A DNA stretch of 64,000 nt from a virus. A model generated the notes under the pieces. That model was given only the letters and a program-made list of their open reading frames with translations, did not search any database and was not told where the DNA came from. Positions within the stretch are counted from its first letter, which is position 1. Every line of letters begins with the position of its first letter. The stretch lies in the UHGV virus genome UHGV-1455077. The stretch is one strand, 5' to 3'. Shown piece after piece: positions 5,904 to 23,174 of this stretch. The translations under genes were made by a program, and so were the position numbers.

Positions 5904-5925
5904 TGTAATGGTCTCCTTTTAACCT

Positions 5926-6606
5926 TTATTTACAGCTCCAGTTTCTAAACCAAGATACAATATCTTCATTTAATTTAGATTCATATCTTGAAGAACTACT
6001 GTTTATTAAATCTTGAGCATTGTTTAATAATTTTTGACCACTACCAGTATACATTAATTTTTCATATATAGGTGTTGGTCTTGCATCTTGAGCTGAAGGG
6101 GTTGCCACAATATCAACTGTAACAATTTCAAAATCTGAAACCGTATTATCATAATCGCTTACATTACCAGAACCACGAGATGATACACCAAGTGGAACTC
6201 CGTCTTGTAATAATCCTTCAACTATTTTTCCTGATGGAGTATTTGATAAAATTTTCATTTTACCAATACCATCGTTTCCCTTCATATGTATTTCTTCAAT
6301 TAAGTGGGAAACATTATGAACATTGATAACCAATGTATCTGGGTGGTCTAATTCTCCTAAAACACCACCGTGCATTTGGATTTGTTCGCTTAAATCATTT
6401 ACTGCACTTTCAATTTCGTGTCTTGGGTAAATACGACCATTAAGGTTTTGAATTTCTCCCTGAATAAAGATACCTTTCAAATACCAATGTTTTTTACGAT
6501 TACCGTTTTCATCAACATAATCAGTCGGGTCAGCCATCATTCGTGACTGACCTGAACTGATATATTCTTGAAGAACTGGTTTATTATTAACTAACATATT
6601 ACCCAT
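5926..6606 (-). CDS. prohead core protease (gp21-like)
   Basis: 226 aa, matching the position and size of T4 gp21 (212 aa) between the core proteins and the scaffold. RBS is AAGGA. The call rests on synteny; no catalytic motif was verified by eye. Confidence 0.55.
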   Translation of the reverse strand: MGNMLVNNKPVLQEYISSGQSRMMADPTDYVDENGNRKKHWYLKGIFIQGEIQNLNGRIYPRHEIESAVNDLSEQIQMHGGVLGELDHPDTLVINVHNVSHLIEEIHMKGNDGIGKMKILSNTPSGKIVEGLLQDGVPLGVSSRGSGNVSDYDNTVSDFEIVTVDIVATPSAQDARPTPIYEKLMYTGSGQKLLNNAQDLINSSSSRYESKLNEDIVSWFRNWSCK

Positions 6607-6621
6607 TCTTACAAATCCTTA

Positions 6622-7665
6622 TTAGTTACCCATCATTGATTTACCAGCGGCAGGTTTATTAGCTGGTTTTTCAACTTTGTGCCATTGTTTAGCACCTTTA
6701 TTTTCAGTTGACTGAACTTTAACTTTTTTATCTGCTGATTCGCCTTTAGAATCAGTTGAACTTACACCTAAACGTGGTTTCTTATTTAATTTCATATCAG
6801 ATAATTTACCAAAGTTCATTGTACCTTTTTTATTTACGCCTTCATCTTCAGAAGTCATTTTTTTACGAGGGTCAGCAATATTTGACCAACCTTCTTCAAT
6901 TGCATCTTCTGAACCATTTTCAGCTTCTAAACGATTTAAAATATCCATTAAATCATCATATGTTTCTTCTGAAACTTCAACAGTACCTTCTGAATCTTCA
7001 CCCATTTCGTGAGCATCCATTTCATCTTCAATACCAGCTTCAATTTCATCTTCACCTTCAGCTTCTAAATCAGATACTAAATCATCACCTTCTGCTTCTT
7101 CAACTTTTATATCTTCTTCAAAATCAAAATCAGAATCGTCATCTTCAACATCTAATTCTTCAACTTCTGAACCATCTTGGAAATGTGAAGAAATTTCATC
7201 AAATAAATCATTAATTTCTTCATCATCAGCGGCACCAGCCATTTCATAATCAGCTTTTAAGTCTTCAATGATTGCTAATGCATCATCATCAGATGATGCT
7301 TCTTCATCATCACCATCACTTAATTTTCTTTCATCAACGATATTACGAAGTTCATCCAATTTACCTCTTACATCATCTGGTAATTCACCTGGATATTTTT
7401 CTTCTAATTCGTCAATAGCAACCATAGTTTGGTCGCTTGCTTCATTTCTACTATCAATTTCATCATTAGAAATTTCACTATTTAATTCATCACCCATATC
7501 AGATACTTCAAAACTTTCATCTTCAGCTTCTAACAAAGAGTAACAATTTTTAGCTTTTAAATCCCATTGACGTTTGAAAAGACGAGTAGCTTTAGCTATA
7601 TCATTATCATTAACCAAAGCATCAAATGCTTCTGCTAATAATTTTCTTTCTAAATCGTTAGTCAT
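6622..7665 (-). CDS. hyper-acidic protein in the head module (prohead core or internal protein candidate)
   Basis: 347 aa with long D/E runs (DDEEASSDDDALAIIEDLKADYEMAGAADDEE...). It sits where T4 has gp67/gp68 and internal proteins. RBS is AAGGAG. Confidence 0.5.
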   Translation of the reverse strand: MTNDLERKLLAEAFDALVNDNDIAKATRLFKRQWDLKAKNCYSLLEAEDESFEVSDMGDELNSEISNDEIDSRNEASDQTMVAIDELEEKYPGELPDDVRGKLDELRNIVDERKLSDGDDEEASSDDDALAIIEDLKADYEMAGAADDEEINDLFDEISSHFQDGSEVEELDVEDDDSDFDFEEDIKVEEAEGDDLVSDLEAEGEDEIEAGIEDEMDAHEMGEDSEGTVEVSEETYDDLMDILNRLEAENGSEDAIEEGWSNIADPRKKMTSEDEGVNKKGTMNFGKLSDMKLNKKPRLGVSSTDSKGESADKKVKVQSTENKGAKQWHKVEKPANKPAAGKSMMGN

Positions 7666-7755
7666 TTAATTAACTCCTTAATTGTTAAAAAATATTTTGT
7701 TCTATTTGTATTTATAAAAACTTATTAAGTTTTGATGAAAATTAGTATTTTTCTC

Positions 7756-7784
7756 TTGACAAATTAAAAAAATAATATACTATA
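7756..7784 (+). promoter_or_regulatory. sigma70-like promoter (TTGACA -N16- TACTAT)
   Basis: TTGACA is at 7756..7761. An AT-rich -10 candidate lies 16-19 nt downstream, ahead of the plus-strand gene at 7813. Confidence 0.4.
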
Positions 7785-7812
7785 TAAAAAAATTTATTGA
7801 TAAGGATAAAAA

Positions 7813-8016
7813 ATGGAAACTATTAAAAATATTTCATTGGATGATGCTTTTGCTTGCTTCCAAATTGAATATTCAAAATCTTATACAAACGTTTATTACA
7901 CATCAAATATTGCCGATAAAGATGTATATGGATTTTTTGCTGATGGTGTTGAAAAAGGTTATTGGTATAATGAACCATTAGATAAAAATAAAAATGGAAC
8001 AGCAATCTATTATTAA
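7813..8016 (+). CDS. hypothetical small protein (plus-strand insert inside the head module)
   Basis: 67-aa ORF with RBS AAGGATAAAAA and its own TTGACA promoter. Confidence 0.4.
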   Translation: METIKNISLDDAFACFQIEYSKSYTNVYYTSNIADKDVYGFFADGVEKGYWYNEPLDKNKNGTAIYY

Positions 8017-8032
8017 ACAATGGAGAAATAAT

Positions 8033-8308
8033 ATGTCTAAACTTAAATTATCCAATCTAAATGTTGTTGGCTGTTATAAGCATCCAACAAAAGATGTAGA
8101 ATGTGTTAAATTAATAAATGGACAAATATATGAACGCTTTTTTAATCCTTTTATTAAAGATTGGTCTGATTGGTCATTAGTAAAATCTTATAAATTAGAA
8201 AGGCATTTTGAAAAAAATAACACATATAATAATGTGTATGATATTAAATTTGTTTTAACATTACCAAATGGAATGAAATTATTAGATATTCCATTTGAAA
8301 AATTATAA
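8033..8308 (+). CDS. hypothetical small protein
   Basis: The ORF track gives 7994..8308. The internal ATG at 8033 (MSKLKLSNL...) has RBS GGAGAAATAAT and avoids overlapping the previous gene. Confidence 0.4.
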   Translation: MSKLKLSNLNVVGCYKHPTKDVECVKLINGQIYERFFNPFIKDWSDWSLVKSYKLERHFEKNNTYNNVYDIKFVLTLPNGMKLLDIPFEKL

Positions 8309-8316
8309 TTTTTTCA

Positions 8317-8344
8317 TTGACAATTAAAAAATATATGTTATATT
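8317..8344 (+). promoter_or_regulatory. sigma70-like promoter (TTGACA -N16- TATATT)
   Basis: TTGACA at 8317..8322 and TATATT at 8339..8344 precede RBS AAGGAG and the ATG at 8366. Confidence 0.45.
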
Positions 8345-8365
8345 TCCATTATAAGGAGATATACT

Positions 8366-8683
8366 ATGAAAAAACATATGATTATTAAAAAGAAAGATAA
8401 TGAAAAACTTTATCAAGAGATTTTCAAACGTGTTAAAAATCAGTATGATTGGGCAATGAAACAATCTGCTGAATGTCATTTTCCTTGGATGCCGTATTTT
8501 AAACAATACTTCATTTCAAATATGGAAAAACCCAAATTCCATTCTGAAAAAACGAAAGATAAATTATATATTCGTGCATTGCGTGAATTAAAAATTCTTC
8601 CCAATGAAGGAGAACCTATTCCTGAATATATGTATGATGCTTATGAAACCAAATATGGTGAAAAATTAAAAGAGAGTATGTAA
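8366..8683 (+). CDS. hypothetical protein
   Basis: 105 aa with a strong RBS (AAGGAGATATACT) and its own promoter. Confidence 0.5.
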   Translation: MKKHMIIKKKDNEKLYQEIFKRVKNQYDWAMKQSAECHFPWMPYFKQYFISNMEKPKFHSEKTKDKLYIRALRELKILPNEGEPIPEYMYDAYETKYGEKLKESM

Positions 8684-8695
8684 TATACTCTCTTT
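8669..8695. terminator. bidirectional terminator hairpin overlapping two convergent stop codons
   Basis: AAAGAGAGTAT-gtaat-ATACTCTCTTT has a perfect 11-bp stem. The plus-gene stop TAA lies in the loop, and the minus-gene stop (8695..8697) begins at the last stem base. Confidence 0.6.
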
Positions 8696-8973
8696 TACAT
8701 TGGCATTCCACCACCTAAATCTCCACCCATTCCTTCTGGATTTTCTAAATTTGGGCCGTAAAGAATTGGAACAAATACAGAATCTTGTGCTAATTCTTCT
8801 CTTTTACTATTACGAATTTTTTTTAATCTGTTAATATCAGATAATTTAAGCACTTTTTTTCGTTTTTTAAATATTTTTGGAATATTCTTATCATCCATTC
8901 TATCATATGGTTTATCCATATCATCATTATCATTTTCTAATAAAATTGTCAATTCTTTTAACATTGTACTCAT
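8695..8973 (-). CDS. small head protein (prohead core gp67/gp68-like candidate) with a Gly/Met-rich C-terminal tail
   Basis: The ORF track gives 8695..9075. The internal ATG at 8973 (MSTMLKELTILL...) has RBS AAAGGAAAAACA and avoids overlapping the portal gene. The protein ends ...PEGMGGDLGGGMPM. Confidence 0.45.
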   Translation of the reverse strand: MSTMLKELTILLENDNDDMDKPYDRMDDKNIPKIFKKRKKVLKLSDINRLKKIRNSKREELAQDSVFVPILYGPNLENPEGMGGDLGGGMPM

Positions 8974-8983
8974 TGTTTTTCCT

Positions 8984-10774
8984 TTATACTGATGGAGTTG
9001 AACCTGCACCTGCGGTTGGAGCAATACCCATACCACCTGCATCTCCTGATGGCATTCCACCACCCATTTCACCATTACCCATACTACTCATATCACCACC
9101 TGCTGGCATACCACCTAATGATTCCATACCAGCATTCATATCTGCCGCCATATCATTCAAGTAATCCATTGAAATATCTTCAATACCAACGGTACGTAAA
9201 CCAGGAATTTGATTTTTATCTTCAGTTGGTAATTCAACATCTTCATTTTTAAATCTATTTTGATTTTCAATAATCAATAAACGCTGATTTTCATTAAATT
9301 CTTCTTCTGTAAGTTTCAAATAATATTTTAATGCGAATTGTTTTGAGATATATTGACTTCCAGATGCACTAAGAAATGCATTTAATCTATTTGTTTTAAT
9401 TTCTTCTTCTGAAATTTCAGTAATATTAGATGGTTCATTAAAAGTTAAATTAAAACTATCTTCATTAACATTAATTCCTCTATGTTGCAAAAATCTTTTA
9501 TATTCTTTATCTAATTCAGGAATTAAAATATCTTGAATACGACAACAAAATTTAAAAAATCTTAATTCTTGAACATATGCATTTGCAACATTTGTTGGTA
9601 AAGTTCGTTGTCCGTCAGTTGGCCCGTAAGGTACCCAAGATTGTGGAACATTCATACCACGAATTAATAAATTCTCCCAAAAAACCATATCATTAATTTC
9701 ACCAAGTGCTTGACCACCAGCTAATTTTTCAATTTTTGGCTGAACACCATCTGAATCAACTGGTAAGAAATAATCTTCATTCATTGGAATTGAATTATAT
9801 GCAACATCTATTGTATTAAATACACCATCTGTATCTTTAGCAGGCATACGTCTTTGAGATAATTCATTTTTGGTTTTTTCAAGTATTTGTTTACGCTTAT
9901 AGCGAGGTATTCCCCCAACTGGAATATAAAAAACTAATTTTTCTGTTGCATTTTTAATTCTATATAATAAAATGCAATCTTGTAATAACATTTTTTGGAT
10001 ATAAATTTTATAAATTTTTTCTAAAATTGATAATCCAAATGGAAAAAGTAATACATTATCGACATTTAATGATAAATGAATTACATTATCAGCACTAACT
10101 GGTAAAGTTGTATTATCATCAGTTGGATTTGGAGAGGTTGATGCATTTGCAGTATTGCTTGCATTAACAACACCAGGAAAATTAGAATTAATTGTATTTA
10201 ATAAATTTCTTGTAGTAACATCTGATTGTGCAGTTGTTGCAACTTTTAAAGGAACATTTAATTCAACATTTTTAATAACATAATGTGTTGGATTTTTTAA
10301 ATCATCTACAACAACGCCTAACACATCATATATATTAACTTTTTGTAATTCATATGTATCAGGGTCACGAACAAAAAATACATCTCCATATTTTAATGCA
10401 TCTCGAATTGTTGGATACATTCTTTTTTTCCATTCATTTGTTTTAACCCAATCATCTAATTCTTTTTCAATTGTTAGTGTTTGGGAATCAGGCAACTTTT
10501 CATTTGCAGTATATTCAATTTTAAATGGCTTATCTTTATCAGCTTGGATAACATAATCTACAATCGTATCTAATGACCAAGAAATAATAGGGTCTTGTTC
10601 CATACCATCATAAATAGTATATCTTTCACAACGATTATTTGGGCCTTGATAAACTGCTGGTAAATAATTTTTATATCTATCATAAATTGACGTAGCATTA
10701 TCTCCAGAATTACCTCTAACTCCAAGCTTTGCTTTTGGTAATGTTACCGCTTTTAAAAATTTTTTATAAGACAT
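8984..10774 (-). CDS. portal vertex protein, T4 gp20 family
   Basis: KLAGGQALGEINDMVFWENLL aligns with T4 gp20 TLPGGQNLGELEDVLYFQQRL, and LRFFKFCCRIQDILIPEL with LKFSKFVHRLRIKFAEAL. RBS is TAAGGAGATTAA. The C-terminus carries a Gly/Met-rich tail. Confidence 0.9.
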   Translation of the reverse strand: MSYKKFLKAVTLPKAKLGVRGNSGDNATSIYDRYKNYLPAVYQGPNNRCERYTIYDGMEQDPIISWSLDTIVDYVIQADKDKPFKIEYTANEKLPDSQTLTIEKELDDWVKTNEWKKRMYPTIRDALKYGDVFFVRDPDTYELQKVNIYDVLGVVVDDLKNPTHYVIKNVELNVPLKVATTAQSDVTTRNLLNTINSNFPGVVNASNTANASTSPNPTDDNTTLPVSADNVIHLSLNVDNVLLFPFGLSILEKIYKIYIQKMLLQDCILLYRIKNATEKLVFYIPVGGIPRYKRKQILEKTKNELSQRRMPAKDTDGVFNTIDVAYNSIPMNEDYFLPVDSDGVQPKIEKLAGGQALGEINDMVFWENLLIRGMNVPQSWVPYGPTDGQRTLPTNVANAYVQELRFFKFCCRIQDILIPELDKEYKRFLQHRGINVNEDSFNLTFNEPSNITEISEEEIKTNRLNAFLSASGSQYISKQFALKYYLKLTEEEFNENQRLLIIENQNRFKNEDVELPTEDKNQIPGLRTVGIEDISMDYLNDMAADMNAGMESLGGMPAGGDMSSMGNGEMGGGMPSGDAGGMGIAPTAGAGSTPSV

Positions 10775-10826: not shown

Positions 10827-12980
10827 CTATATCATACCAGTATTTTTACTTGTTGCCATAAATCCAATATTTTCTAATTGTTGTGTTTGTCTTTGCTGAC
10901 CTCTTTCAATTCTTTCTAACGCATCAAGCATTAATGAATTAATTTCTTTAATATCTTTCTGAACTTGATTTGTTGCATTAAATCGTTGAGTTTCTGCATT
11001 TTGTGTTGATGCATTACTTGCTGATGTATTTGATGAAGAATCAAATGATGGTTGTGCAGGTGGAACGGTATTTGGAGTTGTTGTATTACTTGTTTCTTTC
11101 CATCCATATTTGTTTAATAATTTTGTTGTCATTTCTTCAATAGCAAATGCATATTTCATTGGATTTAATGCAGACAATGCATTTTCAAAAAGAGATTCTT
11201 GTTTCATTTCATTGGTATACATTTCTCCTGTACCAATAAAACCATTTTCAGAAACATCTCGTATACCAGAATATGCATCATAAGCTAATGCCATTGGAGC
11301 AACTAATTTTCCACCAATTCGACCAACTTTTCCTGCCATTTTACCTGCTTTACCAGCAAACTTACCAAGTTTACCAGCTTTACCGCCTTTACCAGAACCA
11401 CCAAAGAAATTACCAATACCATCCATTGCACTTCCGACAACAACAGTTCCAGCAGTAACAAACATTGCACCAACAGTATTAAGTAATTTAGATGCTAACC
11501 CATCAGCTAAATTACCTGCAATACTTGCACCTAAATCAATCCAAAAATTATCTGAAAATTTATCTTTTAAACGACTTAATGGAGATAAAACACTTTCATT
11601 AATCATTTGTAATTTATCAGCAAAAAAACCTAATTCTTTACCTACATTTTCAAGATTTTGTGTGCGTAAATTTTCTAATATTATTTTTGAACGTTCTATT
11701 TCATCTGAAAAATTTCTTGCTGATTTTAAAATATTACTATCAGTAGATTCTCCATTATAAGTTGCTAATTTTTGTCCTCTTGTACCAACAGCAACTTGAC
11801 CAAATAATGCGGCATTTTCAGGTCTATATACTAAATTTGAACCATATAAAGCATCATTTACTAATGATGAATTCATTCTATTACGTTCAGTTTGATTTCT
11901 ATCAAGGGAAGCATTAATAAAAGAAATCATTTCTTCCATTTGCATATTTGGATTACGAGCAACCATATTTCTTAATTGGGCATAATCTCTACCTTGTTGA
12001 ATTGCCATAGCTCCTAAATATTTTTCACTTGTAACATCATTTAAAATTAATGCACGAGCCATTTCAGGGCCAACTTGCTGTGCAAGTAAACCTTCAAGAG
12101 CTTCCATTGCTGGATTAGCACTTCGTAATGCCTGAATTGCAAATTCATCTTCTTTTAATTTATTTTCTTGTAAAATTAAATCAATACTTTTACCAGTTGC
12201 CATACTCAACTGTTTAAGATTTTTAGTATATAATTCTGTTTCTTTTCTTAAACGTTCACGGTCTAATTGTTCAATATTAGCATATTTTGTTCGTGTATCA
12301 AGATATTCAGATAAAATTGCTTCTTCTTCTTGACGTGTTAAATTAAATTGTCCTGATACAGATTTTAATGTATCATTAAAAAATCCAACCCCATCATTTA
12401 AAAAATTTGCAGATGCATTTAATCTTGATAATAGCTGTGAATTCTTTGTATATAATTTAACTAATTGAGTTTGTGGTCTTGCTAAATCTTCTGATGATTT
12501 ACGTAAACTATCAAATCCTTTTGCAACTGAAACGCCAGCACTTTCTAATTCTCTTAAAGATTCAATTCTTTTTAGTCCATTTTGAAGGCTTGATATAGTT
12601 GCTCCTGCAACAGCTTGTACAATTTTTGCCGCAACAGCTTTATTATTAGATTCTTCTTTACTTTTACTAGATTTTTTTCTATTTCTATCTTCTTTAATAG
12701 CATTATTAATATTATTAACCGCAGATGCTATTTTATCAAAAGATACTTTTCTTTCTTTTTGCTCAATATCAGATAATTTAATATATTTTTTAACATTTAC
12801 TGATAATTCTTGAAGATTTTTATCAACTGTTTTACCAAATTTTTTTGGAAAATAACGACTTAATAATTCATCTAATGGTTGAATAGAACCTAAATCATTA
12901 AAACCAACAGCAACTTCTTTCCCTCTATGTAATACAGGGATTTTTGAAGAAGTTTCCATTTCAATATAATCTTCAGCCAT
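10827..12980 (-). CDS. large virion-associated protein with coiled-coil, Gly/Lys-rich and hydrophobic Gly-rich segments (tape-measure-like candidate)
   Basis: 717 aa. The segment AGTVVVGSAMDGIGNFFGGSGKGGKAGKLGKFAGKAGKMAGKVGRIGGK and long helical regions are reminiscent of tape-measure or internal proteins. No motif confirms this. Confidence 0.35.
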   Translation of the reverse strand: MAEDYIEMETSSKIPVLHRGKEVAVGFNDLGSIQPLDELLSRYFPKKFGKTVDKNLQELSVNVKKYIKLSDIEQKERKVSFDKIASAVNNINNAIKEDRNRKKSSKSKEESNNKAVAAKIVQAVAGATISSLQNGLKRIESLRELESAGVSVAKGFDSLRKSSEDLARPQTQLVKLYTKNSQLLSRLNASANFLNDGVGFFNDTLKSVSGQFNLTRQEEEAILSEYLDTRTKYANIEQLDRERLRKETELYTKNLKQLSMATGKSIDLILQENKLKEDEFAIQALRSANPAMEALEGLLAQQVGPEMARALILNDVTSEKYLGAMAIQQGRDYAQLRNMVARNPNMQMEEMISFINASLDRNQTERNRMNSSLVNDALYGSNLVYRPENAALFGQVAVGTRGQKLATYNGESTDSNILKSARNFSDEIERSKIILENLRTQNLENVGKELGFFADKLQMINESVLSPLSRLKDKFSDNFWIDLGASIAGNLADGLASKLLNTVGAMFVTAGTVVVGSAMDGIGNFFGGSGKGGKAGKLGKFAGKAGKMAGKVGRIGGKLVAPMALAYDAYSGIRDVSENGFIGTGEMYTNEMKQESLFENALSALNPMKYAFAIEEMTTKLLNKYGWKETSNTTTPNTVPPAQPSFDSSSNTSASNASTQNAETQRFNATNQVQKDIKEINSLMLDALERIERGQQRQTQQLENIGFMATSKNTGMI

Positions 12981-12991
12981 CTATCTAACCT

Positions 12992-14500
12992 TTATAATTT
13001 AGAATTTAAACTATTATATGCATTTTTTACACCAGAAGTATCAATTCCTTTAAAAAATTGTTTTAATGCACCAAAAGTTGGTTCAACAACTAAAATAAAC
13101 ATTACTTCTCTTGATGAGTTATCAGTAAATGTTAAAATTGTTCTTTGTTGACCCATAGTTGTTGCACGTTCAGTTCTTGTTACTGTAAAAATACCATCTA
13201 ATAAATCATCATAACGAATAACTTTAATATATTCATTAATATCACCGTGAACTAATAATCTTTTTGAAATTTGTTGAAATAAACTATTATCAGCATTTCT
13301 AATTTCTTCTATTTTATTTAATTCAGTTTCTCTATCTTCTCCATATGATGCATTTGTCTGTAACTCTGACAAATAATATTTTTTTACGGTACTTAAATTT
13401 GGAACGTTTGTAAAAACATAATTAACATAATTAACTTTACCAACATTTTTCATTATATCTTTAATTCTTTTAATAATATCGGCTGATGCCTTTGCTTTTA
13501 ATGAAAATTCTTGTTGTAAATCATAGTCATCATCTTCTTTTTTAACAGATGACATCATTTTATCAAGAAATTTTACTTGATTTGGCTTATTTTGTTGTAT
13601 ATTTTTATAAACAGTTTCCCACCATTTTTGAGTAGCTGAATCAAATAATTTTTGTGTTTCTTCATCACGTTTATCATAAAATTCATCTAAATTTTTATAT
13701 TTTTTCTTTAATTTAGAAATATTTGCCTTTGCTTTAAGTTTTGATGTTCCACAAAAATATAAATTATTATATAAATCTTCCAAAATATCTATATTTTTTT
13801 GTCCAACTATATCTTTAAATTTTTCATCAAATAAAGGTATTTTATTATTTTTAAGAGATTCTTTTATGAATACTTCTCTTTTATCACTATCAATATCTAT
13901 ATCATTATCAAAATCTTCATCATTAATTTCTGTTTCATTATTAACTTCATCATCCGAAACATCATTTTTATTTTCTTCATTATTTAATGGTAATGCCATT
14001 TGTTTTTCATTTTCTTTTTCTTTTTTTAATTCTGGCTTATAATTTTGTTGAAAACGATTTAATGATTCATCTGCCATTTGTTCAGTTTTCTTTTCTAAGC
14101 TATAAGATATACCACCATTATCCAATAAATCTAAAAAATCTTTATTTAAACCATCTAAAATAATATCATTATTAAAAATTCTTCTTAATTCATTACTGAT
14201 TAAAGTTGCTTCTGTTGTTGTTTTTTCTTCATCAGTTCCATTTGGATTGATTGGTTCACTTAAACTTTTATACCAATCATATTTGGCTTGAGTTCCATAT
14301 TTACTATTAATTTTTTTAGCTGTTGTCTGGACAATATGATTAAACAACATTTTTTTTAATTCTTGAATTTCATCACGAGTAAATGTTTTATTTGATGAAC
14401 TATCTTCAAACAAAAGTACACCCCCATTTTTAATTATACTTTCATATAATTCATCAGTAATTGTAAATTTTTCATTATTTTTCAAAATATATTTAACCAT
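12992..14500 (-). CDS. hypothetical acidic protein
   Basis: 502-aa ORF with ATAAATAT at 14530..14537 upstream. Confidence 0.5.
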   Translation of the reverse strand: MVKYILKNNEKFTITDELYESIIKNGGVLLFEDSSSNKTFTRDEIQELKKMLFNHIVQTTAKKINSKYGTQAKYDWYKSLSEPINPNGTDEEKTTTEATLISNELRRIFNNDIILDGLNKDFLDLLDNGGISYSLEKKTEQMADESLNRFQQNYKPELKKEKENEKQMALPLNNEENKNDVSDDEVNNETEINDEDFDNDIDIDSDKREVFIKESLKNNKIPLFDEKFKDIVGQKNIDILEDLYNNLYFCGTSKLKAKANISKLKKKYKNLDEFYDKRDEETQKLFDSATQKWWETVYKNIQQNKPNQVKFLDKMMSSVKKEDDDYDLQQEFSLKAKASADIIKRIKDIMKNVGKVNYVNYVFTNVPNLSTVKKYYLSELQTNASYGEDRETELNKIEEIRNADNSLFQQISKRLLVHGDINEYIKVIRYDDLLDGIFTVTRTERATTMGQQRTILTFTDNSSREVMFILVVEPTFGALKQFFKGIDTSGVKNAYNSLNSKL

Positions 14501-14529
14501 TATATTTCCTCAATTTTATATGTATATGA

Positions 14530-14537
14530 ATATTTAT
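14530..14537 (-). promoter_or_regulatory. late-promoter-like motif ATAAATAT
   Basis: 29 nt upstream of the ATG at 14500. Confidence 0.4.
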
Positions 14538-14552
14538 TACATCTAAATAAAA

Positions 14553-14590
14553 TAAAAAAGCACCATTATATGATGCTTTTTGTTTTTGCT
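14553..14590 (-). terminator. rho-independent terminator (minus strand)
   Basis: On the minus strand, GCAUCAU-auaa-AUGGUGC forms a stem with one G-U pair followed by UUUUUUAUUUUAUUU. It sits immediately after the stop of the -1 frame extension. Confidence 0.5.
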
Positions 14591-14783
14591 TCATTTATTT
14601 TTTTATCATATTCCGTTTTCATTTTAATATAACGTTCTCTTAATTTATAAGGCATACTATAAATTTCTTGTAACGTTATTTGCCCATTAGAATATATTTG
14701 CATATTTAATAAAGAATTTTCAATACTATCTTTTTGTTTATTTAACTGCTCAATAAATTCTAAAATTTGTTCATCATTAGAAT

Positions 14784-15722
14784 TTAAGAGCTTAAACCGA
14801 AAAAATCCGATTGATTAAATCCATAAAATCTATCTTTCCATTGATGCCCGCAATAAGGACAGAAAAATTCTAATTCATTTGGTAAACCAATATCATTTAA
14901 TTCTTTAATTTTAGAAAAAATTTCATTAACAAAGGAAGCACTTGATTCTGAAATAAATTCATAAATTAAATTATTATCATCAACAAAACTACCATCAGGC
15001 AAAATTACTTTTAAAATACCATTAGATACAATTTTATTACCAATATCACTAATATTTAAATAAATTTTAGAAACATTCGAAACAAATTTTGTTCTTTCTT
15101 CTTCTGTTTGATTTTCATCATCAAATTTATAATCTTTAAATTGTTTTAAAATTGATTTTTCTTTAAAATTTAATAAATTAAATAAATTTTTATCTTTTGT
15201 AATATTTGGTCTAATATAGATTTTTAATCCATTTTCAGTTTCCATAATATATTCTTTTTCTAATACCGAAATTCTTTCTAAAATATTTCTACAAGAAAAT
15301 GAAAAGGATTGTGAATGTAAGCAAATTTTATTTTCTTTTTCTAATTTCGTTAACTTATCTGGTTCATTTTTTAATTTTTCTTTTAATTCCATACAATGTG
15401 GACAACTTAATTCTAATTTTAATTCATCACCATATGTTGCCGCTCTAATACCAAGCATTAAAACATTTAAATCTGGATATAACAACATTTCTGGATTTTT
15501 AATAGCTGGAACGCAAGATTTAATAACATCAATATTTGCTTGACCAGACAATAGTGCATCTGGATTAACCATTATTAATTCATCTTTAGGTAGCATAGGA
15601 AATATTTCAACTTCATTCAATGCATTTAATACAACAACATTAGAAGAATACCAATTTCCATTTGTTGGAAGTTTAATAGAAAGTTCTGCTTTACGAGCAT
15701 AATCAAGCAATGGATTACTCAT
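14784..15722 (-). CDS. Zn-ribbon protein (two CxxC pairs)
   Basis: CPHCMELKEK and CPYCGHQWKDRF. The ORF track starts at 15782, but the ATG at 15722 (MSNPLLDY...) has the strong RBS AAAGGAGAAATT. A candidate -1 frameshift extension is described in the findings. Confidence 0.6.
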   Translation of the reverse strand: MSNPLLDYARKAELSIKLPTNGNWYSSNVVVLNALNEVEIFPMLPKDELIMVNPDALLSGQANIDVIKSCVPAIKNPEMLLYPDLNVLMLGIRAATYGDELKLELSCPHCMELKEKLKNEPDKLTKLEKENKICLHSQSFSFSCRNILERISVLEKEYIMETENGLKIYIRPNITKDKNLFNLLNFKEKSILKQFKDYKFDDENQTEEERTKFVSNVSKIYLNISDIGNKIVSNGILKVILPDGSFVDDNNLIYEFISESSASFVNEIFSKIKELNDIGLPNELEFFCPYCGHQWKDRFYGFNQSDFFGLSS

Positions 15723-15750
15723 AATTTCTCCTTTAAAAACTAATTTATTT

Positions 15751-15758
15751 TTATTTAT
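15751..15758 (-). promoter_or_regulatory. late-promoter-like motif (TATAAATAA variant)
   Basis: Minus strand reads TTATAAATAAAAATAAATTAG...AAAGGAGAAATT ATG. Confidence 0.35.
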
Positions 15759-15786
15759 AACATATAAAATATGAAAAAACAAATAA

Positions 15787-15815
15787 AAAAGGAGTTTTAA
15801 ACTCCTTTTTTATTT
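15787..15815 (-). terminator. rho-independent terminator after the giant gene
   Basis: AAGGAGTT-tta-AACTCCTT followed by TTTTTATTTT. Confidence 0.6.
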
Positions 15816-18800
15816 TTCTTCAAAATATGATAACATTTTTTGAATTACAATTGCACTTTCAGCTTCTAAATAATCATATTTTGTTTGATTTCCTATGAAA
15901 ATTGAATCATCACGAGAATCATAATCACCATTCCAGAAATTTAATGTTACATTAAAATCTTCTGCAACAGTAACTTTACTACCAACAGGAACAGTTGCTT
16001 TTGTAAATGGTAATTCATTTGTTAAATATTCAAGAGTATCATTACTACCTGTTTTTAATCCTAATACAACTGCGGATGTTGAAACTCCTGAAACTAATGA
16101 AAATGTTATTGGATATTGATTATATCCTTCTCCAGATATATCTGGTGTATAAATTTTAACATTATTAGCAAAACTGTTTTTCATATATGAAGCATCTAAT
16201 ACACCGTTTTTAGTTATATTAATTCCCATATAATCATAACCATTCCATAAATCTTCGGTAATAATAAAATCAGTTGTTCTTGGTGTTTCATCTCTATACC
16301 AATTTGGAACATTATTTTTTAATTCTGCATCATCCATATATGTATATAAACTATCAGAAACATTAATTGTTCCATCTTGTAAACCAACAGTATGGAAGAT
16401 TGGAGATGTTCCTTGCATTCCTTCATATTGTTTAAGTATCCACTTGCCATCAGAATATATTTTTACAACATCGCCTGTTTCAAAATGATATTCTTCAAAA
16501 TGTTCTTGTAAATCAATCTCTGATTCAAAAGTTGCTCTTGGTGTTATCATTTTAATTGAATCATCAGCATATAAATCTTTATATGTCCAATATTTAGAAA
16601 CATCATAAGTTTGATATTTTAATAAAGTATAATCATTTAAATTATCCATTCTCCATAAAGTCCAAATATTTTCATATACTTCATCAGTTTTTACTAAAAT
16701 TGTTTTTCCAATTAAAGCTGTGTCTTCACTTGAAATCATTTCTAAATGAGTATCAAATGAATAATCATATTCTGGATATGGTTCTTTACTTAAAAATATA
16801 TTATTAAATTCACTTGAACCAACATCAATATCTGATAATACATCACGAGTATCAAATATATGATTTAATATATCAACGAAATTTTGTCTTGCTTTTGATA
16901 TATTTTCAAACATTGTTTGTCGAGGTCTAATGTAAATACCAATTTTATTTCTTTCTAATAATTCTGGGTCAGGAACAACTTGACCTAAAGAATCATAGCC
17001 AACTAAACTTGCTTTCATTTTATCCCATAATGAATCTGGAATTTCGGCATCAGTATTTTCTTTAACTAAAACCCATTCTTCGTGTTCAGTTACATCATTA
17101 TCGCCTAAAAAATTCAATTGAATTACAAAATCTCTACCTGCATTTATTGTATCAAAATTACCAATAATCATTGAACTATATTGTGTTTCGCCATCATACG
17201 CATATACAGGAGCATACCAAATTACACCTTCATCTTGTGGAGAATTGATAATTTGCGAAATATATAATGCACTTGTATGTCTGAATTGAACTGAAGGTAT
17301 TTCAGATGGATTTTTTACCCAATAGTAATAATATACTTCATTTTTTTCAGTTGAATTATTATATACTTCTTTAGTTACATAAGAAATATCTTTTGGTTCA
17401 GTTGTTGATTTAGTCCATTCCATTATAGCAATTTCTGAACCAGGCATTTGTTTACCCCAATTATTTCTTCTATAAGTAATTTCTCCTTGTGAATAGTCTA
17501 AATATTTAACTTTTGAAATATCCCACCATAATTGTCCAACTTTATTATCACCCCAAGTTGAATAATTATTATAATCAGCAGGGTCTTGTGCAATTATATA
17601 ATTAATTTCTTTTAATAAATTATTTGGAAAAACTCCTTGAATTGGGTCATAAGGCTGAATAGTTGCCATTGTTTCATTATTATCATCATTAACCATAAAG
17701 CAAGATTTAACTTCTTTAATATTAACTTTACGATTTTGTAAACGATATAATGAATATGTTTTATCAACTGTTGGTTTATAATCTATATCAGTTTCTCCAA
17801 CATCATAAACTTCTCCAGATTGTTCATTAATATATTTAAATACTGACCAAGCCATTTTATCAATAATATTTTGTGAATCATTAATATGATAAGATGGGTC
17901 ATAAATTTTCTTTAAGTTATCTACATTATTAATAACATCTCTTAATACATATATTAAATCGCCAATTTCTAAATGAGTTGTATCAAAACTATAAACATCA
18001 GCAATTTTATCAACAACCATAGAAATCCAATTGTTTTCTTCATCAACTTTTTTACGTATATCCCAACCTTGTTTAGTATTGGCAAATGAAATCCAAACTT
18101 TTTCACCAACTTTCATATTTTTTAACATTTCATCAAAAGTTGTTTCATTATCAATGATATAATTTGTTTCACCAATTTCTGCAAATCCAGCAGTTGGATA
18201 AAATTTAAAATTATTTGTAAAGTTAAATTTATTTAATTCTTTACTTTCTTTTTTCTTTAACCAATTTGAATTATTCCAAGTAATATCAATAATAGAATTA
18301 TTTAATTTAACATTATCAGATGTTGTAAATGAAACAATTTGAGGGTCTTGCGTGATTAAATCAGGTTGTACTTTTAATTCAATAATTGAACTATTTGAAG
18401 TATAACCAAATTCTCCAACTTTAAATGCCCAGTTTTCAAACAATTCAATTTCATTATTTTCTGCATCCATAATATAAGTTGAACGATTTAATTTATCAAA
18501 TGAACGTTTTGTCCCTTTTTCTTTAAGTAATCCTTTATAGAAATCAAAGATATTTCTATCATCAATTAATAATCTTTCCATAGATGGTAATTTTTGAAAA
18601 CCAATAGTTCTCTTTGCATAATCACCAAAAATACCTTGTGAGCGAACATCATCAGTATTATAGAAATATTTAAAATCATTAGCTAATTTATCATAGTTTG
18701 GATATGCTCCATTTTTATCAATTAAATAACCAGGAGCAAAATATGTTCCGTTCCAGCCATCAACTTTAATACCTAAAAGTTTTAAACGCTGTGCTTTAAT

Positions 18801-21800
18801 ACAAAGTAATGGGTCATATATAATGTCACCATAAATTGTTTGATTATCAAATAATATAATATGTTCATTTTCAATTTCTTTAATTTTCAAACAAGTAATA
18901 GCTTTATTTGTTGAGAATATATAAGTATCACCTTCTTTACGATAAACATCTAAATCTTCATTGAATATTGGTAAAGAAGCAGTATTTAATACTGACCAAT
19001 AACCATTAACATATTGTCCAACTTTATCAATAAATGCATCGTGGAAAATACCAATACCATCAGCACCAGGATTTAACATAATAATTGAATCTGTTTCAAT
19101 ATTTGTTGTCGTCCATAATAAGAAATCTCTAGCTTTATTTCTGAAATTTACCAATTCTCCATTGGTATCTAACATATTAAAATACCATCCTTCAACATCT
19201 TCAAGATATTTTCCATAACCATTAATAATATTATAAACATCTTGAATAGAAGAATAAACAGTTTTATAATTTATTTTTTCTAATTTATCAGTCCATTCAT
19301 TATAATAAATAACATTTCTTCCAGCAATATTAACAGTTGATTTTTTACCATTATATTGAGGAATTTTTACCATAAAATATGGCTTTTCATAATCATAACC
19401 ATCTATCATATAACCAGATTCAACTTTTTGAATTACAATTGCTGAATATGAATATTGTTTATCGGTAATAGTTTTATATAAATCTAATTCATAATTTTGT
19501 GAAGGAATAACTCCAAAATTATCTGATAAAATTTTAATACTATCATATTTGTAATAGCCTGCACATTTATAAGATAATTTCATTGTAATTTTTCTTATTG
19601 AATCAGCAATATAATTTGTAATATCTACATTTTCGTGTAATAAGAAATCTGAAATCCATTGTTGAATACCAATTTTTTGAATATAAGAATTATCAACTAA
19701 TTCATTATGCATAACAACATCAGATGGAGAAGGTCTTTTACCTAAATCATCATAAATAATTTGCTCATATGAAGTATCTTTAAAAATAACTTTAATATTT
19801 TGAGTATCCCAATTTCTTTCTACCCATTCTGTTGGTCTCATCATATATAAAATTGATTGAATTGAATATCTATATTCAGATGTATACATCCACGCAAATT
19901 CCCAACGACCAATATCACCAACTTTCCAAGATTGTCTTGCATAATATGGAATAGGAGCATTTAAAACAATACCAATATCAACTGGATTTAATAATTCACC
20001 ATTTTCATTAACTGGTAAATATTTTTCAATTAATTGTGGACGTTTTAAAAATTCATATTCTCCTTTTGATTCTCCATCAGCTACGTAACCATTTTCAATA
20101 TCTTGCCACATAGGTAAATTTGCAGAAGTATATGGTGCAGTACCATAATGTTCTTCCCACCATTCAGGCATTGAACCAAAACCTAACATTTCCCAAGGAT
20201 GAGTATGAGGTCTATAAGTATCATAGTAATACATATAAATTGATTTATATGAACCATATAATTGTTCGCCATCAGCATCTACACAAGTTGAATAATTCCA
20301 AGAAAATGGGTCATTTTGGTCAAAACCATCATTAATAGTATAATCAACACCTTTATCTTGACACCATTTTTCAAAAATAGGAGTTAAAAATTCTTTATAT
20401 TCTTGTTGATTATAACTTGTTTCTCTAAATTTACCAGGAATATATTCTAACTTATTGTATAATGGTAAACTATTTTTAAATTTATCTAAGATTGAATTAT
20501 AAATAGCTGTTTCAATTCCTAATAATGCTTCATCACGATAATCATTAAATAACATTTGATATGAACCATCGTGGCAAAGTAAAACTTTTGGTTTATTAGC
20601 ATTTTCTTCAAATACAATAATCTGTGGCTTATAACAAGAATCTAATCCTAAATATGCAGGAGTAGCTGGAATATAACATTCTCCATATTCATTTGCTACA
20701 CCATTATTATAAAATGAATTTAATCCTTCTTTACCAATATTAATTTTACTTAATGCAGTTTGAATAATTTTTTTAACATCTGTTTGTTGAGTTATATGAG
20801 AAACTGAACCTGTTGGACTAATAACATCAACAGTTTCATATTCATCATATTCTCCACTATTACTCATTGAAGTAATAATATTTTTAAATTTAGTTTTAAA
20901 TTTTGTATATTCATTAGTTATATATGTTAATACTGTTCTTATATTTGAAAATTCACGAGAATTTAGCAACATTGTTTTAAGGGCAGGACTTTCGTGTTGT
21001 AAAATTTCTGTACCTAATGATAAATCTTTTTTTGTATTATTATAATTATTATTTCCTGATGAATTACCACTAAATGCACTTTGATTTTCAATGATGCTTC
21101 TTAATTGGTCAAAACATTCATTATAATTAATTTGAGAAATATCTTCATTCATTGCATTTGAAGTAATAGTTAATGGTAAATCATAAAAATATCCATCAGC
21201 AATTGTATCAGTTAACTTTTTAACTAATAATTTAATATATAAGCTATCATCAGTATTTAAAATACTTGTTTCAGCAATCATTAATTTTTTATCTTTAATG
21301 ATATAATCAATACCGTCATTTAACAAAACACCATTTAGATATACAAATGATGATTTTTTATTTGTAACTTCGTCTGGCTGATATGCTAATTGAAAAACAG
21401 TATATTTCACATCATCAATTGTTTCATATACTTTATTATCTGAAACTGTTAACTCGGTTGTAATATATTGAGTAGTTATATCTTTAGAAATATACCAGTT
21501 ATTTAAATATACATCTTGTCCATTTAATTTAAAAAACTTAAATCCATCATACTCTTTTAATATTGTATAATCATAATAAGTAAATGTTTGTGTTCTAATT
21601 ATATTATCAAAAATGTAATTACCATAGCCATCAGTAACAATAGCTTTATTTAAATCTTCATCTATTGTTGCTCCTGCTTCATCAGTTGTAACATAATCAA
21701 ATAATTTACTTCCCTTAAATGATGATTGATTGTAATATAATTGATTATCTAAAGTGTTTTTTTCATCATCATAAAGTTGAAATAATGGTGATTGATTAAC

Positions 21801-23174
21801 ATTATGCTTTTGTTGTCCTGTTATCCATTCTCCATTGTTATAATAGTAATAAATACCTGCATAACGACCTTTACGTACAGTTATGCCTTCTCCTTCAACT
21901 GGTGAACCATCTGTTGATAAACCATTAATTACTGGTTGTAAAATAACAGTATTAATTGATGAAACGCCTGAAACTTGATAAATTCTATTATTTGATAATT
22001 CATCAGAATCGCCTGTGATTAAAATTGTCATTCCATCTTTTAAATCAACCCCTTGTATTGGTTGTGGAACAATACCATTTAAATCATTCTTTCTACTATT
22101 AACAATTAAATCAACATATCCACGATTATAAGTTCCATAATTATATAATTGAATATCTTTATTAAAACATAAAATAGGTTTTTTAGCCTGAATATATTGA
22201 ATTTTTCTTGTATTATCTGTGTATCTGATACTTTCAAACTCACCAAAAGTTTTAACTTTAATTGTTAAATCCATATCAGCATAAATCATTGTATCATCAG
22301 TCATATCTTCTGGCGATGCGTTTGTATAATATAATACATTATTACTTATTAATTGATAAATTATTGTATTTTCAATTTTATCTAAAACTGAACGATGAAA
22401 CCAACGATTTCTTAATGACCAAGCGTTACCATCAATTGCTCCTCTTTCCATAACATAATAATCAGGAGCTTTAGATATTGAAGATAAAATTTCACTATCA
22501 TTAATTAATTGAATTGATGAACCAACTCCTTCTACAATAAATGGAATATTATTATACTCTGGATTTTCATCATTAATAAATAACACTCTCATACCAGATG
22601 AAAAATTTACTGTTACTTCATTTTCATCTTCATCAATTCCTTTATAAGTATAATTTTCTTTTCCAATAATATCAGTAACAGCATTTGTTTTTGATAATAA
22701 TTCTACTGGTGGCTGACCATCTTCTACCCAATAATAAAAGTTATAGTTTAAAAACATATCTATATTAATTGGCGGACACCAAGACCAATATGTATCCGAA
22801 AGCAATCTGTTTTGGTCATTTGTTTCACAACCCTGAATTTTCAATGTATTTAAGAAATTACTAAAATCAACAACGGAATTATTTGATTCTAATGATTCAT
22901 CATTAGGATTTGTTGTTACTAAAACAGGTGATAATTGATAAGTTTTTCTTTCACTTGATGGTTCTGAAAGATAAAAATCACCTTTTTCTAATGCAACCGA
23001 TTTTTTACCAATATATCCATTAATATAACTTTCATATGATTGTTGGAAAAATGGATTTAAAACATAATCTATATATTTGCCAATTAGTTGTCTATTTGAA
23101 AATTCTGCTGGAAAAAAATCTTTTAAATCTTTTTTAACAATTTGTTTAACCGAAGTTGCTTCATTAATTGCCAT
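15810..23174 (-). CDS. giant virion structural protein (2454 aa), baseplate or tail-fibre candidate
   Basis: A single uninterrupted ORF with RBS AAAAGGATAAAATA and a late motif 26 nt upstream. It lies in a cluster with the tube protein and other very large structural proteins. No catalytic motif was seen. Confidence 0.6.
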   Translation of the reverse strand: MAINEATSVKQIVKKDLKDFFPAEFSNRQLIGKYIDYVLNPFFQQSYESYINGYIGKKSVALEKGDFYLSEPSSERKTYQLSPVLVTTNPNDESLESNNSVVDFSNFLNTLKIQGCETNDQNRLLSDTYWSWCPPINIDMFLNYNFYYWVEDGQPPVELLSKTNAVTDIIGKENYTYKGIDEDENEVTVNFSSGMRVLFINDENPEYNNIPFIVEGVGSSIQLINDSEILSSISKAPDYYVMERGAIDGNAWSLRNRWFHRSVLDKIENTIIYQLISNNVLYYTNASPEDMTDDTMIYADMDLTIKVKTFGEFESIRYTDNTRKIQYIQAKKPILCFNKDIQLYNYGTYNRGYVDLIVNSRKNDLNGIVPQPIQGVDLKDGMTILITGDSDELSNNRIYQVSGVSSINTVILQPVINGLSTDGSPVEGEGITVRKGRYAGIYYYYNNGEWITGQQKHNVNQSPLFQLYDDEKNTLDNQLYYNQSSFKGSKLFDYVTTDEAGATIDEDLNKAIVTDGYGNYIFDNIIRTQTFTYYDYTILKEYDGFKFFKLNGQDVYLNNWYISKDITTQYITTELTVSDNKVYETIDDVKYTVFQLAYQPDEVTNKKSSFVYLNGVLLNDGIDYIIKDKKLMIAETSILNTDDSLYIKLLVKKLTDTIADGYFYDLPLTITSNAMNEDISQINYNECFDQLRSIIENQSAFSGNSSGNNNYNNTKKDLSLGTEILQHESPALKTMLLNSREFSNIRTVLTYITNEYTKFKTKFKNIITSMSNSGEYDEYETVDVISPTGSVSHITQQTDVKKIIQTALSKINIGKEGLNSFYNNGVANEYGECYIPATPAYLGLDSCYKPQIIVFEENANKPKVLLCHDGSYQMLFNDYRDEALLGIETAIYNSILDKFKNSLPLYNKLEYIPGKFRETSYNQQEYKEFLTPIFEKWCQDKGVDYTINDGFDQNDPFSWNYSTCVDADGEQLYGSYKSIYMYYYDTYRPHTHPWEMLGFGSMPEWWEEHYGTAPYTSANLPMWQDIENGYVADGESKGEYEFLKRPQLIEKYLPVNENGELLNPVDIGIVLNAPIPYYARQSWKVGDIGRWEFAWMYTSEYRYSIQSILYMMRPTEWVERNWDTQNIKVIFKDTSYEQIIYDDLGKRPSPSDVVMHNELVDNSYIQKIGIQQWISDFLLHENVDITNYIADSIRKITMKLSYKCAGYYKYDSIKILSDNFGVIPSQNYELDLYKTITDKQYSYSAIVIQKVESGYMIDGYDYEKPYFMVKIPQYNGKKSTVNIAGRNVIYYNEWTDKLEKINYKTVYSSIQDVYNIINGYGKYLEDVEGWYFNMLDTNGELVNFRNKARDFLLWTTTNIETDSIIMLNPGADGIGIFHDAFIDKVGQYVNGYWSVLNTASLPIFNEDLDVYRKEGDTYIFSTNKAITCLKIKEIENEHIILFDNQTIYGDIIYDPLLCIKAQRLKLLGIKVDGWNGTYFAPGYLIDKNGAYPNYDKLANDFKYFYNTDDVRSQGIFGDYAKRTIGFQKLPSMERLLIDDRNIFDFYKGLLKEKGTKRSFDKLNRSTYIMDAENNEIELFENWAFKVGEFGYTSNSSIIELKVQPDLITQDPQIVSFTTSDNVKLNNSIIDITWNNSNWLKKKESKELNKFNFTNNFKFYPTAGFAEIGETNYIIDNETTFDEMLKNMKVGEKVWISFANTKQGWDIRKKVDEENNWISMVVDKIADVYSFDTTHLEIGDLIYVLRDVINNVDNLKKIYDPSYHINDSQNIIDKMAWSVFKYINEQSGEVYDVGETDIDYKPTVDKTYSLYRLQNRKVNIKEVKSCFMVNDDNNETMATIQPYDPIQGVFPNNLLKEINYIIAQDPADYNNYSTWGDNKVGQLWWDISKVKYLDYSQGEITYRRNNWGKQMPGSEIAIMEWTKSTTEPKDISYVTKEVYNNSTEKNEVYYYYWVKNPSEIPSVQFRHTSALYISQIINSPQDEGVIWYAPVYAYDGETQYSSMIIGNFDTINAGRDFVIQLNFLGDNDVTEHEEWVLVKENTDAEIPDSLWDKMKASLVGYDSLGQVVPDPELLERNKIGIYIRPRQTMFENISKARQNFVDILNHIFDTRDVLSDIDVGSSEFNNIFLSKEPYPEYDYSFDTHLEMISSEDTALIGKTILVKTDEVYENIWTLWRMDNLNDYTLLKYQTYDVSKYWTYKDLYADDSIKMITPRATFESEIDLQEHFEEYHFETGDVVKIYSDGKWILKQYEGMQGTSPIFHTVGLQDGTINVSDSLYTYMDDAELKNNVPNWYRDETPRTTDFIITEDLWNGYDYMGINITKNGVLDASYMKNSFANNVKIYTPDISGEGYNQYPITFSLVSGVSTSAVVLGLKTGSNDTLEYLTNELPFTKATVPVGSKVTVAEDFNVTLNFWNGDYDSRDDSIFIGNQTKYDYLEAESAIVIQKMLSYFEEK

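Follow-up and report, generated by a model that had tools for sequence, protein, structure and literature searches.

A putative cassette for programmed -1 ribosomal frameshifting in the 3'-terminal part of a gp26/gp51-type baseplate-hub assembly gene of jumbo and T4-like phages

In Escherichia coli dnaX, the tau/gamma pair depends on a -1 frameshift at A AAA AAG together with a downstream hairpin. Among long-tailed phages, a conserved -1 frameshift is described in the tail assembly chaperone genes (Xu, Hendrix and Duda 2004, as related in PMC5009743), and phage lambda shows a 30:1 ratio of G to GT resulting from a -1 frameshift, crucial for tail assembly (PMC5009743). The present analysis concerns a zinc-ribbon gene in a 64,000-nucleotide stretch of DNA, referred to below as the window, from the virus genome UHGV-1455077; this gene, a single baseplate-hub assembly gene of the gp26/gp51 type, very probably ends in a cassette of the same kind, which would direct a programmed -1 ribosomal frameshift. 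The T4 genes 26 and 51 both encode hub-assembly chaperones, and gp51 is called a "catalyst". To our knowledge, the "universal" tail-chaperone frameshift has long been noted as absent in T4-like phages, an absence reportedly remarked on by Xu and colleagues. Central-hub assembly in T4 requires the products of both genes, as chaperone or catalyst, a role known for this phage alone (PMC3004832, Table 2).

The zero-frame coding sequence of the window gene (14784..15722, minus strand) runs from an ATG at 15722 to a TAA at 14786..14784 and encodes a zinc-ribbon protein of 312 amino acids, which would be the short product comparable to T4 gp26. Near its end the mRNA reads GA-U UUU UUC-GGU UUA AGC UCU UAA; the slippery heptamer U UUU UUC (14805..14799, minus strand) stands in X XXY YYZ register with the zero frame (GA-T TTT TTC) and is the proposed slip site. 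The -1 frame is open for 82 codons, from 14814 to a stop at 14568..14566 (minus strand), within the 283 nucleotides that separate the zero-frame stop from the next gene (ATG 14500). Counted from the heptamer, it would supply the C-terminal domain of a long product, FFRFKLL...KSII (14566..14805, minus strand; 79 codons, then the stop), and the fused protein would comprise 385 residues, 308 from the zero frame and 77 from the -1 frame. A preliminary description of this DNA had already reported the 283-bp gap with its open -1 frame of 82 codons (14814 to 14566) and the heptamer at 14799..14805 in this register, and both are present. It had also placed a terminator at the end of the extension, where a terminator-like hairpin with a U-tract (14555..14581, minus strand) indeed overlaps the -1 stop and may end the transcription unit. 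Two details need correction: the slip site was put twelve codons before the zero-frame stop, whereas four sense codons follow the heptamer before that stop, and the only open reading frame (ORF) with an ATG, GTG or TTG start in the -1 frame (14703..14566), rightly described as the sole one, begins at codon 37 of the 82 and encodes 45 rather than 46 residues.

The 312-residue protein belongs to Pfam family PF12322, "T4_baseplate" (score 28.8 bits, above the 24.5 cut-off; E 1.2e-6), the only Pfam family above threshold, and matches the PHROG profile phrog_150, "baseplate hub" (E 5e-9). The same Pfam family is recognised in its jumbo-phage relatives (CBB, 8e-23; PA5oct, 2.9e-25), with which the window protein shares about 25-30% identity. 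The cysteines of two CxxC pairs (C107/C110 and C288/C291) show at least 90% conservation where they are not wholly invariant, and the FF motif that closes the domain (F307/F308) is invariant or almost so. No sequence homologue of the window protein was found in the PDB, blastn in distant mode with window positions 12000-18000 returned no match in the phage collection, and an AlphaFold2 model of the fused protein made without an alignment was uninformative (predicted local distance difference test score, pLDDT, 32).

The locus was compared in about 100 relatives: close IMG/VR contigs; 12 jumbo phages of the Rak2/PA5oct/Atu_ph07 type (JNE01, Ecwhy_1, CBB, GAP32, fHe-Yen9-03, Serratia BF, XaC1, PA5oct, Atu_ph07, Phosso, SCTP-2 and Vibrio 2.275.O); 80 IMG/VR loci chosen by N-terminal motifs alone, at least 591 relatives being confirmed among the 600 pattern matches listed; and nine T4-like phages of cyanobacteria, vibrios, aeromonads and rhizobia, including S-PM2, P-SSM5, phiM12, Aeromonas phage 65 and a vibriophage. 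All of them carry an in-register heptamer 2-14 codons before the zero-frame stop and a conserved -1 ORF of 58-94 codons. Three 77%-identical contigs have the identical site, and in them a TGA stands just before the heptamer in the -1 frame, which fixes the opening of the -1 ORF precisely at the slip site. Each of the 12 jumbo phages has T TTT TTC in register, 4-14 codons before the stop, with a -1 ORF of 73-85 codons. In the IMG/VR loci the heptamer (80/80) lies 2-6 codons before the stop and reads T TTT TTC in 65, often as A AAT TTT TTC, A AAT TTT in 13 and T TTT TTT in 2; where the contig is long enough to reach the -1 stop, the -1 ORF measures 77-94 codons. The nine distant T4-like phages likewise all carry an in-register heptamer, which in S-PM2, P-SSM5, phiM12, Aeromonas phage 65, Vibrio F86 and Rhizobium RHph_I46 is T TTT TT(C/T/G), 3-4 codons before the stop and followed by a -1 ORF of 59-63 codons. 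Among the genomes examined, the site is absent only in T4 and its close relative Aeromonas avDM7, in both of which gene 25 directly follows gene 26. Judged by these comparisons, the recurrence of a heptamer with a homologous -1 ORF is far beyond chance.

Wider searches give a consistent picture of a broken frame. A tblastn search with the fused protein retrieved 94 phage records, all of jumbo myoviruses, and one with the transframe protein of S-WAM1 retrieved 580, the match being split in two in 58 of the 60 listed. No in-frame fusion occurs among 120 homologous protein clusters, which cover at most about 80% of the fused query, nor among 101 clusters homologous to the extension, all of them stand-alone calls of 40-135 residues. 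The 135-residue cluster P0140 was considered as a fusion and rejected: the N-terminal part is no continuation of the gp26-like protein, and the cluster is taken for an assembly chimera.

Several features of these sequences speak for translation of the -1 frame. The extensions align almost without gaps from their first residue, with the pattern FFR-x-x-LL...PEE-I...(Y/W)S..E...M(S/P)..ER, and the amino-acid conservation (FFRxxLL..PEEI) begins at the heptamer, upstream of the ATG starts annotated in GenBank. In 26 moderately diverged pairs, -1-frame differences fall at third codon positions in 690 cases, at first positions in 336 and at second positions in 203; these counts, together with the near-gapless alignment, indicate purifying selection on the -1 frame beginning at the slip site. 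The arginine after FF is encoded by all four CGN codons across lineages. At the site itself, the nucleotides are conserved beyond what the peptide demands: in all 83 unique sequences T is the last base of the codon preceding FF, whether the residue is N, S, H, D, T or Y, and FF is written TTT TTC in 71 of them. The string NNT TTT TTC is thus observed in 71 of 83 sequences against an expectation of about 0.12 per sequence given the peptide, and the remainder keep another in-register heptamer. On codon usage, then, the heptamer is conserved at synonymous sites. Past the slip site the zero-frame tails have 1-13 residues, mostly 1-6. In 68 of the 83 unique sequences the -1 frame either has no ATG at all or has its first one 10 or more codons into the domain, at scattered positions; in only 5 does the first ATG precede the heptamer.

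Downstream of the heptamer, a 7-nucleotide spacer, GGUUUAA (14792..14798, minus strand), leads to a predicted stimulatory stem-loop (14748..14791, minus strand) composed of GCUC, a 9-bp stem AAAUUCUAA:UUAGAAUUU and GAGC. Its minimum free energy is -18.5 kcal/mol, with a z-score of -2.75 relative to dinucleotide shuffles, and the z-score of the 70-nucleotide downstream segment is -4.6. Across 83 relatives the 70 nucleotides after the heptamer average a z-score of -2.02 and -16.1 kcal/mol, compared with -0.24 and -9.6 kcal/mol for 415 control segments from the same genes (Mann-Whitney p = 1e-21), and the probability of a 5' stem arm peaks at 0.86, 4-12 nucleotides past the heptamer. Rfam contains no family matching the slip site, and no Shine-Dalgarno-like stimulator is evident upstream in the window cassette.

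T4 offers the closest described counterpart of both products. T4 gp26 is a full-length member of PF12322 (8.8e-64, residues 1-206 of 208) and ends two residues past the domain; T4 gp51 is a full-length member as well (3.9e-52, residues 1-201 of 249), which overturned an initial equation of the family with gp26 only. The two are paralogues (direct BLASTP 2e-6) and both fall in phrog_150, a relationship that was not found stated in the papers covered. Their genes are adjacent and divergently transcribed (5803..6429 and 6480..7229 of the T4 stretch analysed). The 48 residues of gp51 beyond the PF12322 domain match phrog_634, "baseplate hub assembly catalyst", a profile that also matches the -1 extensions of S-WAM1 (4e-31), LPCS28 (6e-11) and OLIVR5 (3e-8). 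In a joint MAFFT alignment gp51 and the transframe products stay colinear across the slip site, the counterpart of gp51 there being FFRTKLLISEPEEI, while the CBB transframe product reads ...DPSNFFRTKLLISEPEEI...SYEMLLNMPVTDRDLLVK.... T4 gp26, which carries CPECG, ends in ...KEFFELL, where the short product ends. No slippery run is present at that point in T4, the sequences being GAG TTC TTT in gene 26 and GTG TTT AAG in gene 51. As gp51 is colinear with the fused product, it is the single-ORF orthologue for which the preliminary description had asked, and gp26 represents the short product. The T-even lineage may have swapped the frameshift for a gene duplication.

For the jumbo-type extensions the link runs through profiles. 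An hhalign comparison of the jumbo-type extension profile, which includes the window sequence, with the gp51-type alignment gave E 1.9e-4 and was colinear over 53 columns; by position, motif and this moderate profile-profile score, the window extension appears to correspond to the C-terminal ~50 residues of gp51. The fused-protein profile gave only weak local matches to the single T4 gp51 and gp26 sequences, and the gp26 match paired the C-terminal CxxC of gp26 with the first CxxC of the profile. Support for the T4 link accordingly comes from three sources, namely the matches to Pfam and PHROG profiles, the MAFFT alignment and the comparison of extension profiles. A hidden Markov model of the extension found nothing significant in a six-frame translation of the T4 hub region. 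An initial view of the extension as specific to jumbo phages was overturned by the -1 extensions of T4-like phages.

When modelled by AlphaFold2 with a multiple sequence alignment, the extension reached a pLDDT of 89.4, with helices at residues 2-7, 11-38, 45-49 and 53-78; the model suggests two long helices linked by a short one. The extension has no Pfam family, no sequence match in the PDB and no significant Foldseek match in the PDB or BFVD. A weak match to phrog_10922 was set aside as probable coiled-coil noise originating from the scaffold-like protein of the window. That protein is encoded by a 419-residue ORF (4644..5903, minus strand; phrog_10922, 1.5e-48) flanked by the genes of the prohead protease (5926..6606) and the major head protein (3415..4620), and is probably the scaffold.

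The following sequence of events would account for the locus. Most ribosomes would pass U UUU UUC, add four residues and terminate, giving the 312-residue short product equivalent to T4 gp26. A fraction would pause at the hairpin 7 nucleotides downstream, whereupon both tRNA-Phe would slip back by one base (from UUU UUC to UUU UUU), and translation of 77 codons in the -1 frame would yield the 385-residue long product, equipped with an extra helical domain resembling the gp51 C-terminus. We infer that the slip does occur, at a low fixed ratio, and that both isoforms are required for assembly of the central hub/tape-measure complex. The label of assembly "catalyst" that gp51 bears in GenBank fits a rare frameshift product comparable to a catalytic gp51 next to an abundant zero-frame product comparable to gp26. 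The predicted tryptic peptide across the window junction is FYGFNQSDFFR, and the zero-frame C-terminus is FYGFNQSDFFGLSS; the corresponding junctions are predicted to read ...LQSFFR in S-PM2 and ...DPSNFFR in CBB.

The frame break could also have simpler origins. The preliminary description had itself raised a 1-nucleotide indel in the homopolymer, and if the T6 run contained a sequencing or assembly error or a real deletion of one nucleotide, the true gene would be a single 385-residue ORF. Homopolymers are error-prone, and T4 gp51 demonstrates that an in-frame version can exist. The break, however, is found in about 100 independent genomes or contigs (4 close contigs, 12 GenBank jumbo phages, 80 IMG/VR loci and 9 T4-like phages) that come from many sequencing projects and cover 25-100% protein identity, and 13 of the 80 IMG/VR loci have a run of only five T yet keep A AAT TTT in register. 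With the break retained in independent assemblies and isolates, and with in-frame fusions lacking from all 120 + 101 homologous protein clusters, we regard this explanation as excluded and its probability as negligible. The same homopolymer invites a second thought, namely that RNA polymerase slips on the T6/A6 run and fuses the frames in a minority of mRNAs, which would lead to the same protein outcome. Productive transcriptional slippage usually involves runs of 8-9 nucleotides or longer, whereas the run is six here and five in the 13 loci just mentioned, which nevertheless preserve the canonical A AAT TTT; moreover, a hairpin behind a 5-7-nucleotide spacer is a hallmark of ribosomal frameshifting. 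Slippage of the polymerase is accordingly judged very improbable.

Hundreds of GenBank records annotate the locus as two separate genes, one gp26-like and one a small independent "gp51" or hypothetical protein; the small one would be translated either independently, at a start codon of its own, or through termination-reinitiation. An ATG does overlap or closely follow the zero-frame stop in some phages, e.g., JNE01 (ATGA) and S-PM2 (TAAGCATG). In the window, however, no ATG, GTG or TTG occurs before codon 37 of 82, and the scattered or missing first ATGs of the 68 sequences noted above are mirrored in gene-caller products of 40 to 90 residues. Conservation of the FFRxxLL..PEEI segment reaches back past the annotated starts as far as the heptamer; the heptamer, the hairpin and the constant -1 frame of the small ORF would be left unexplained, and T4 gp51 is a fusion. 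Two independent genes are therefore an unlikely arrangement. By comparison, the programmed -1 frameshift proposed in the preliminary description gains support from synonymous conservation of the heptamer, selection on the -1 frame, the lack of a conserved start, a positioned hairpin and T4 gp51; the comparison of orthologues that it had recommended shows the same frame break kept, with conserved downstream -1 sequence, in the ~100 relatives.

It should be noted that several observations weigh against programmed frameshifting, or against parts of the case for it. Some relatives (S-PM2, JNE01, Vibrio F86) have an ATG a few codons past the site, and where an ATG is this near, some free small protein could additionally arise by separate or coupled initiation. 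The hairpins do not share a single consensus, and the distance of the 3' arm differs between clades. The homology of the jumbo-type extension, that of the window included, to the gp51 C-terminus is moderately supported by the sequence comparisons, and neither the window extension nor the jumbo-type profile matches phrog_634 directly. The entire case for frameshifting is inferred from sequence, and text searches of PMC4066793 for the heptamer U UUU UUC gave no match.

Compared with the described systems, the locus combines familiar elements in an unfamiliar gene. It resembles lambda gpG/gpGT in having a heptamer near the 3' end and a short form beside a C-terminally extended one (isoforms that in the window are deduced from sequence), with an abundant short and a rare long form, both of them assembly factors; S-PM2 adds a tape-measure-like next gene, which matches the G/GT-H gene order. 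It differs from lambda in that the protein family is unrelated (PF12322 with a zinc ribbon), the T4 homologues act in hub assembly, and in the window and the jumbo phages no recognised tube and tape-measure genes adjoin the gene. In Pfam and the PDB the window protein shows no sequence homology to known tail assembly chaperone families, and the extension no fold match. With T4 gp26/gp51 it shares the family, gp51 carrying the C-terminal domain that is -1-encoded in other phages, but T4 has two diverged, divergently transcribed paralogues without a slippery site where the window would make both forms from one recoded gene, and the window protein has 312 residues rather than 208 (gp26) or 249 (gp51). 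The "gp51" ORFs of 50-60 residues in T4-like cyanophages (phrog_634) are the same -1 extension, but are annotated as free-standing. To dnaX the likeness lies in a tandem-slippage heptamer, a short spacer, a simple stem-loop near the stop and two isoforms at a fixed ratio; the window heptamer is U UUU UUC, however, and frameshifting would yield the longer isoform here, as against the shorter one in dnaX. It is tempting to speculate that the gp26/gp51 frameshift pair is the counterpart of lambda G/GT in the T4 superfamily and in Rak2-type jumbo phages, with the short form as a chaperone of a gp29-type tape measure, the helical domain of the long form nucleating the hub or tube, and T4 26/51 as a duplicated, frame-fixed derivative of an ancestral recoding system with one gene. 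Such a pair would account for the apparent lack of the tail-chaperone frameshift in T4-like phages. We consider this analogy conceivable rather than probable and offer it tentatively.

The surroundings of the gene vary among these phages. In S-PM2 (S-PM2d207 5813..9316), a 1167-residue ORF annotated as hypothetical directly follows gp26/gp51 and matches the tape-measure family phrog_9570 (5e-21) as well as peptidase/lysin families. Aeromonas phage 65 and LPCS28 have the order gp54, gp26 plus extension, an unknown protein of ~600 residues, and gp3. In the window, the extension is followed directly by a 502-residue ORF without a Pfam or PHROG match (12992..14500, minus strand); BLASTP links this ORF weakly and locally to residues 58-123 of T4 gp25 (E 0.008 in a 16-protein database), and T4 gene 25 follows gene 26. 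Beside the portal gene, a 717-residue ORF (10827..12980, minus strand) with the Gly/Lys-rich repeat GGSGKGGKAGKLGKFAGKAGKMAGK and no assigned family is weakly colinear with CBB_251 (phrog_14121, "virion structural protein"), GAP32_244 and the JNE01 ORF WOL22782; its counterpart adjoins the gp26-like gene in most Rak2-type phages inspected, and it is possibly the tape measure. The virion proteome of CBB lists CBB_251 and lists neither CBB_250 nor CBB_249, which fits, as weak evidence, a non-structural role of the latter two.

The gene may form a transcription unit of its own. The octamer TATAAATA (15752..15759, minus strand), read from the sequence 30 nucleotides upstream of the ATG of the PF12322 gene, is presumably a match to the T4 late-promoter consensus, and a Shine-Dalgarno sequence AAGGAG (~15733..15728, minus strand) precedes the ATG at 15722; together, the putative late promoter and the Shine-Dalgarno sequence suggest T4-type late transcription of the gene. 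Directly upstream lies a 2454-residue ORF (15810..23174, minus strand; phrog_10938, "virion structural protein") with its own terminator at its end, a terminator-like hairpin (15781..15815, minus strand) that marks the upstream border of the unit. Two terminator-like sites thus occur within 1.7 kb, compared with 0.1 expected from shuffles, and since they flank the gene and its extension on both sides, the two appear to form a single monocistronic unit.

Current annotation does not reflect such an arrangement. Under the listed S-WAM1 tblastn matches, the features are mostly "gp26 baseplate hub" together with "gp51 / baseplate hub assembly catalyst" or "hypothetical protein", and none of the GenBank records inspected has a joined or slippage coding sequence at the locus. 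The -1 extension is unannotated in PA5oct, S-WAM1 and LPCS28 and reduced to fragments of 26 residues in Aeromonas phage 65 and 40 residues in Atu_ph07, leaving in these five phages unexplained gaps of 160-220 nucleotides after the hub gene. No description of a frameshift in this gene was found in the literature searched, which did not cover subscription journals, and the word "frameshift" is absent from the genome papers of PA5oct, MIJ3, CBB, Atu_ph07, XacN1 and phAPEC6. The mechanism is classical; what appears to be new is its location in PF12322, its breadth and the correspondence with T4 gp26/gp51.

If this reading is true, hundreds to thousands of phage genomes would be mis-annotated at the locus, among T4-like cyanophages, vibriophages, aeromonad phages and rhizobiophages as well as Rak2/PA5oct/Atu_ph07-type jumbo phages, with a spurious small "gp51", a hypothetical ORF begun at an arbitrary codon or a gap left unexplained in place of the extension. 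A role of the isoform ratio in hub/tape-measure assembly would be testable in the cultivable S-PM2, KVP40-like phages, 121Q, CBB and PA5oct. The finding would also provide a rationale for two poorly understood essential T4 genes, with gp26 as the short and gp51 as the long isoform of one ancestral protein, and would represent a natural case in which a recoding signal was traded for gene duplication.

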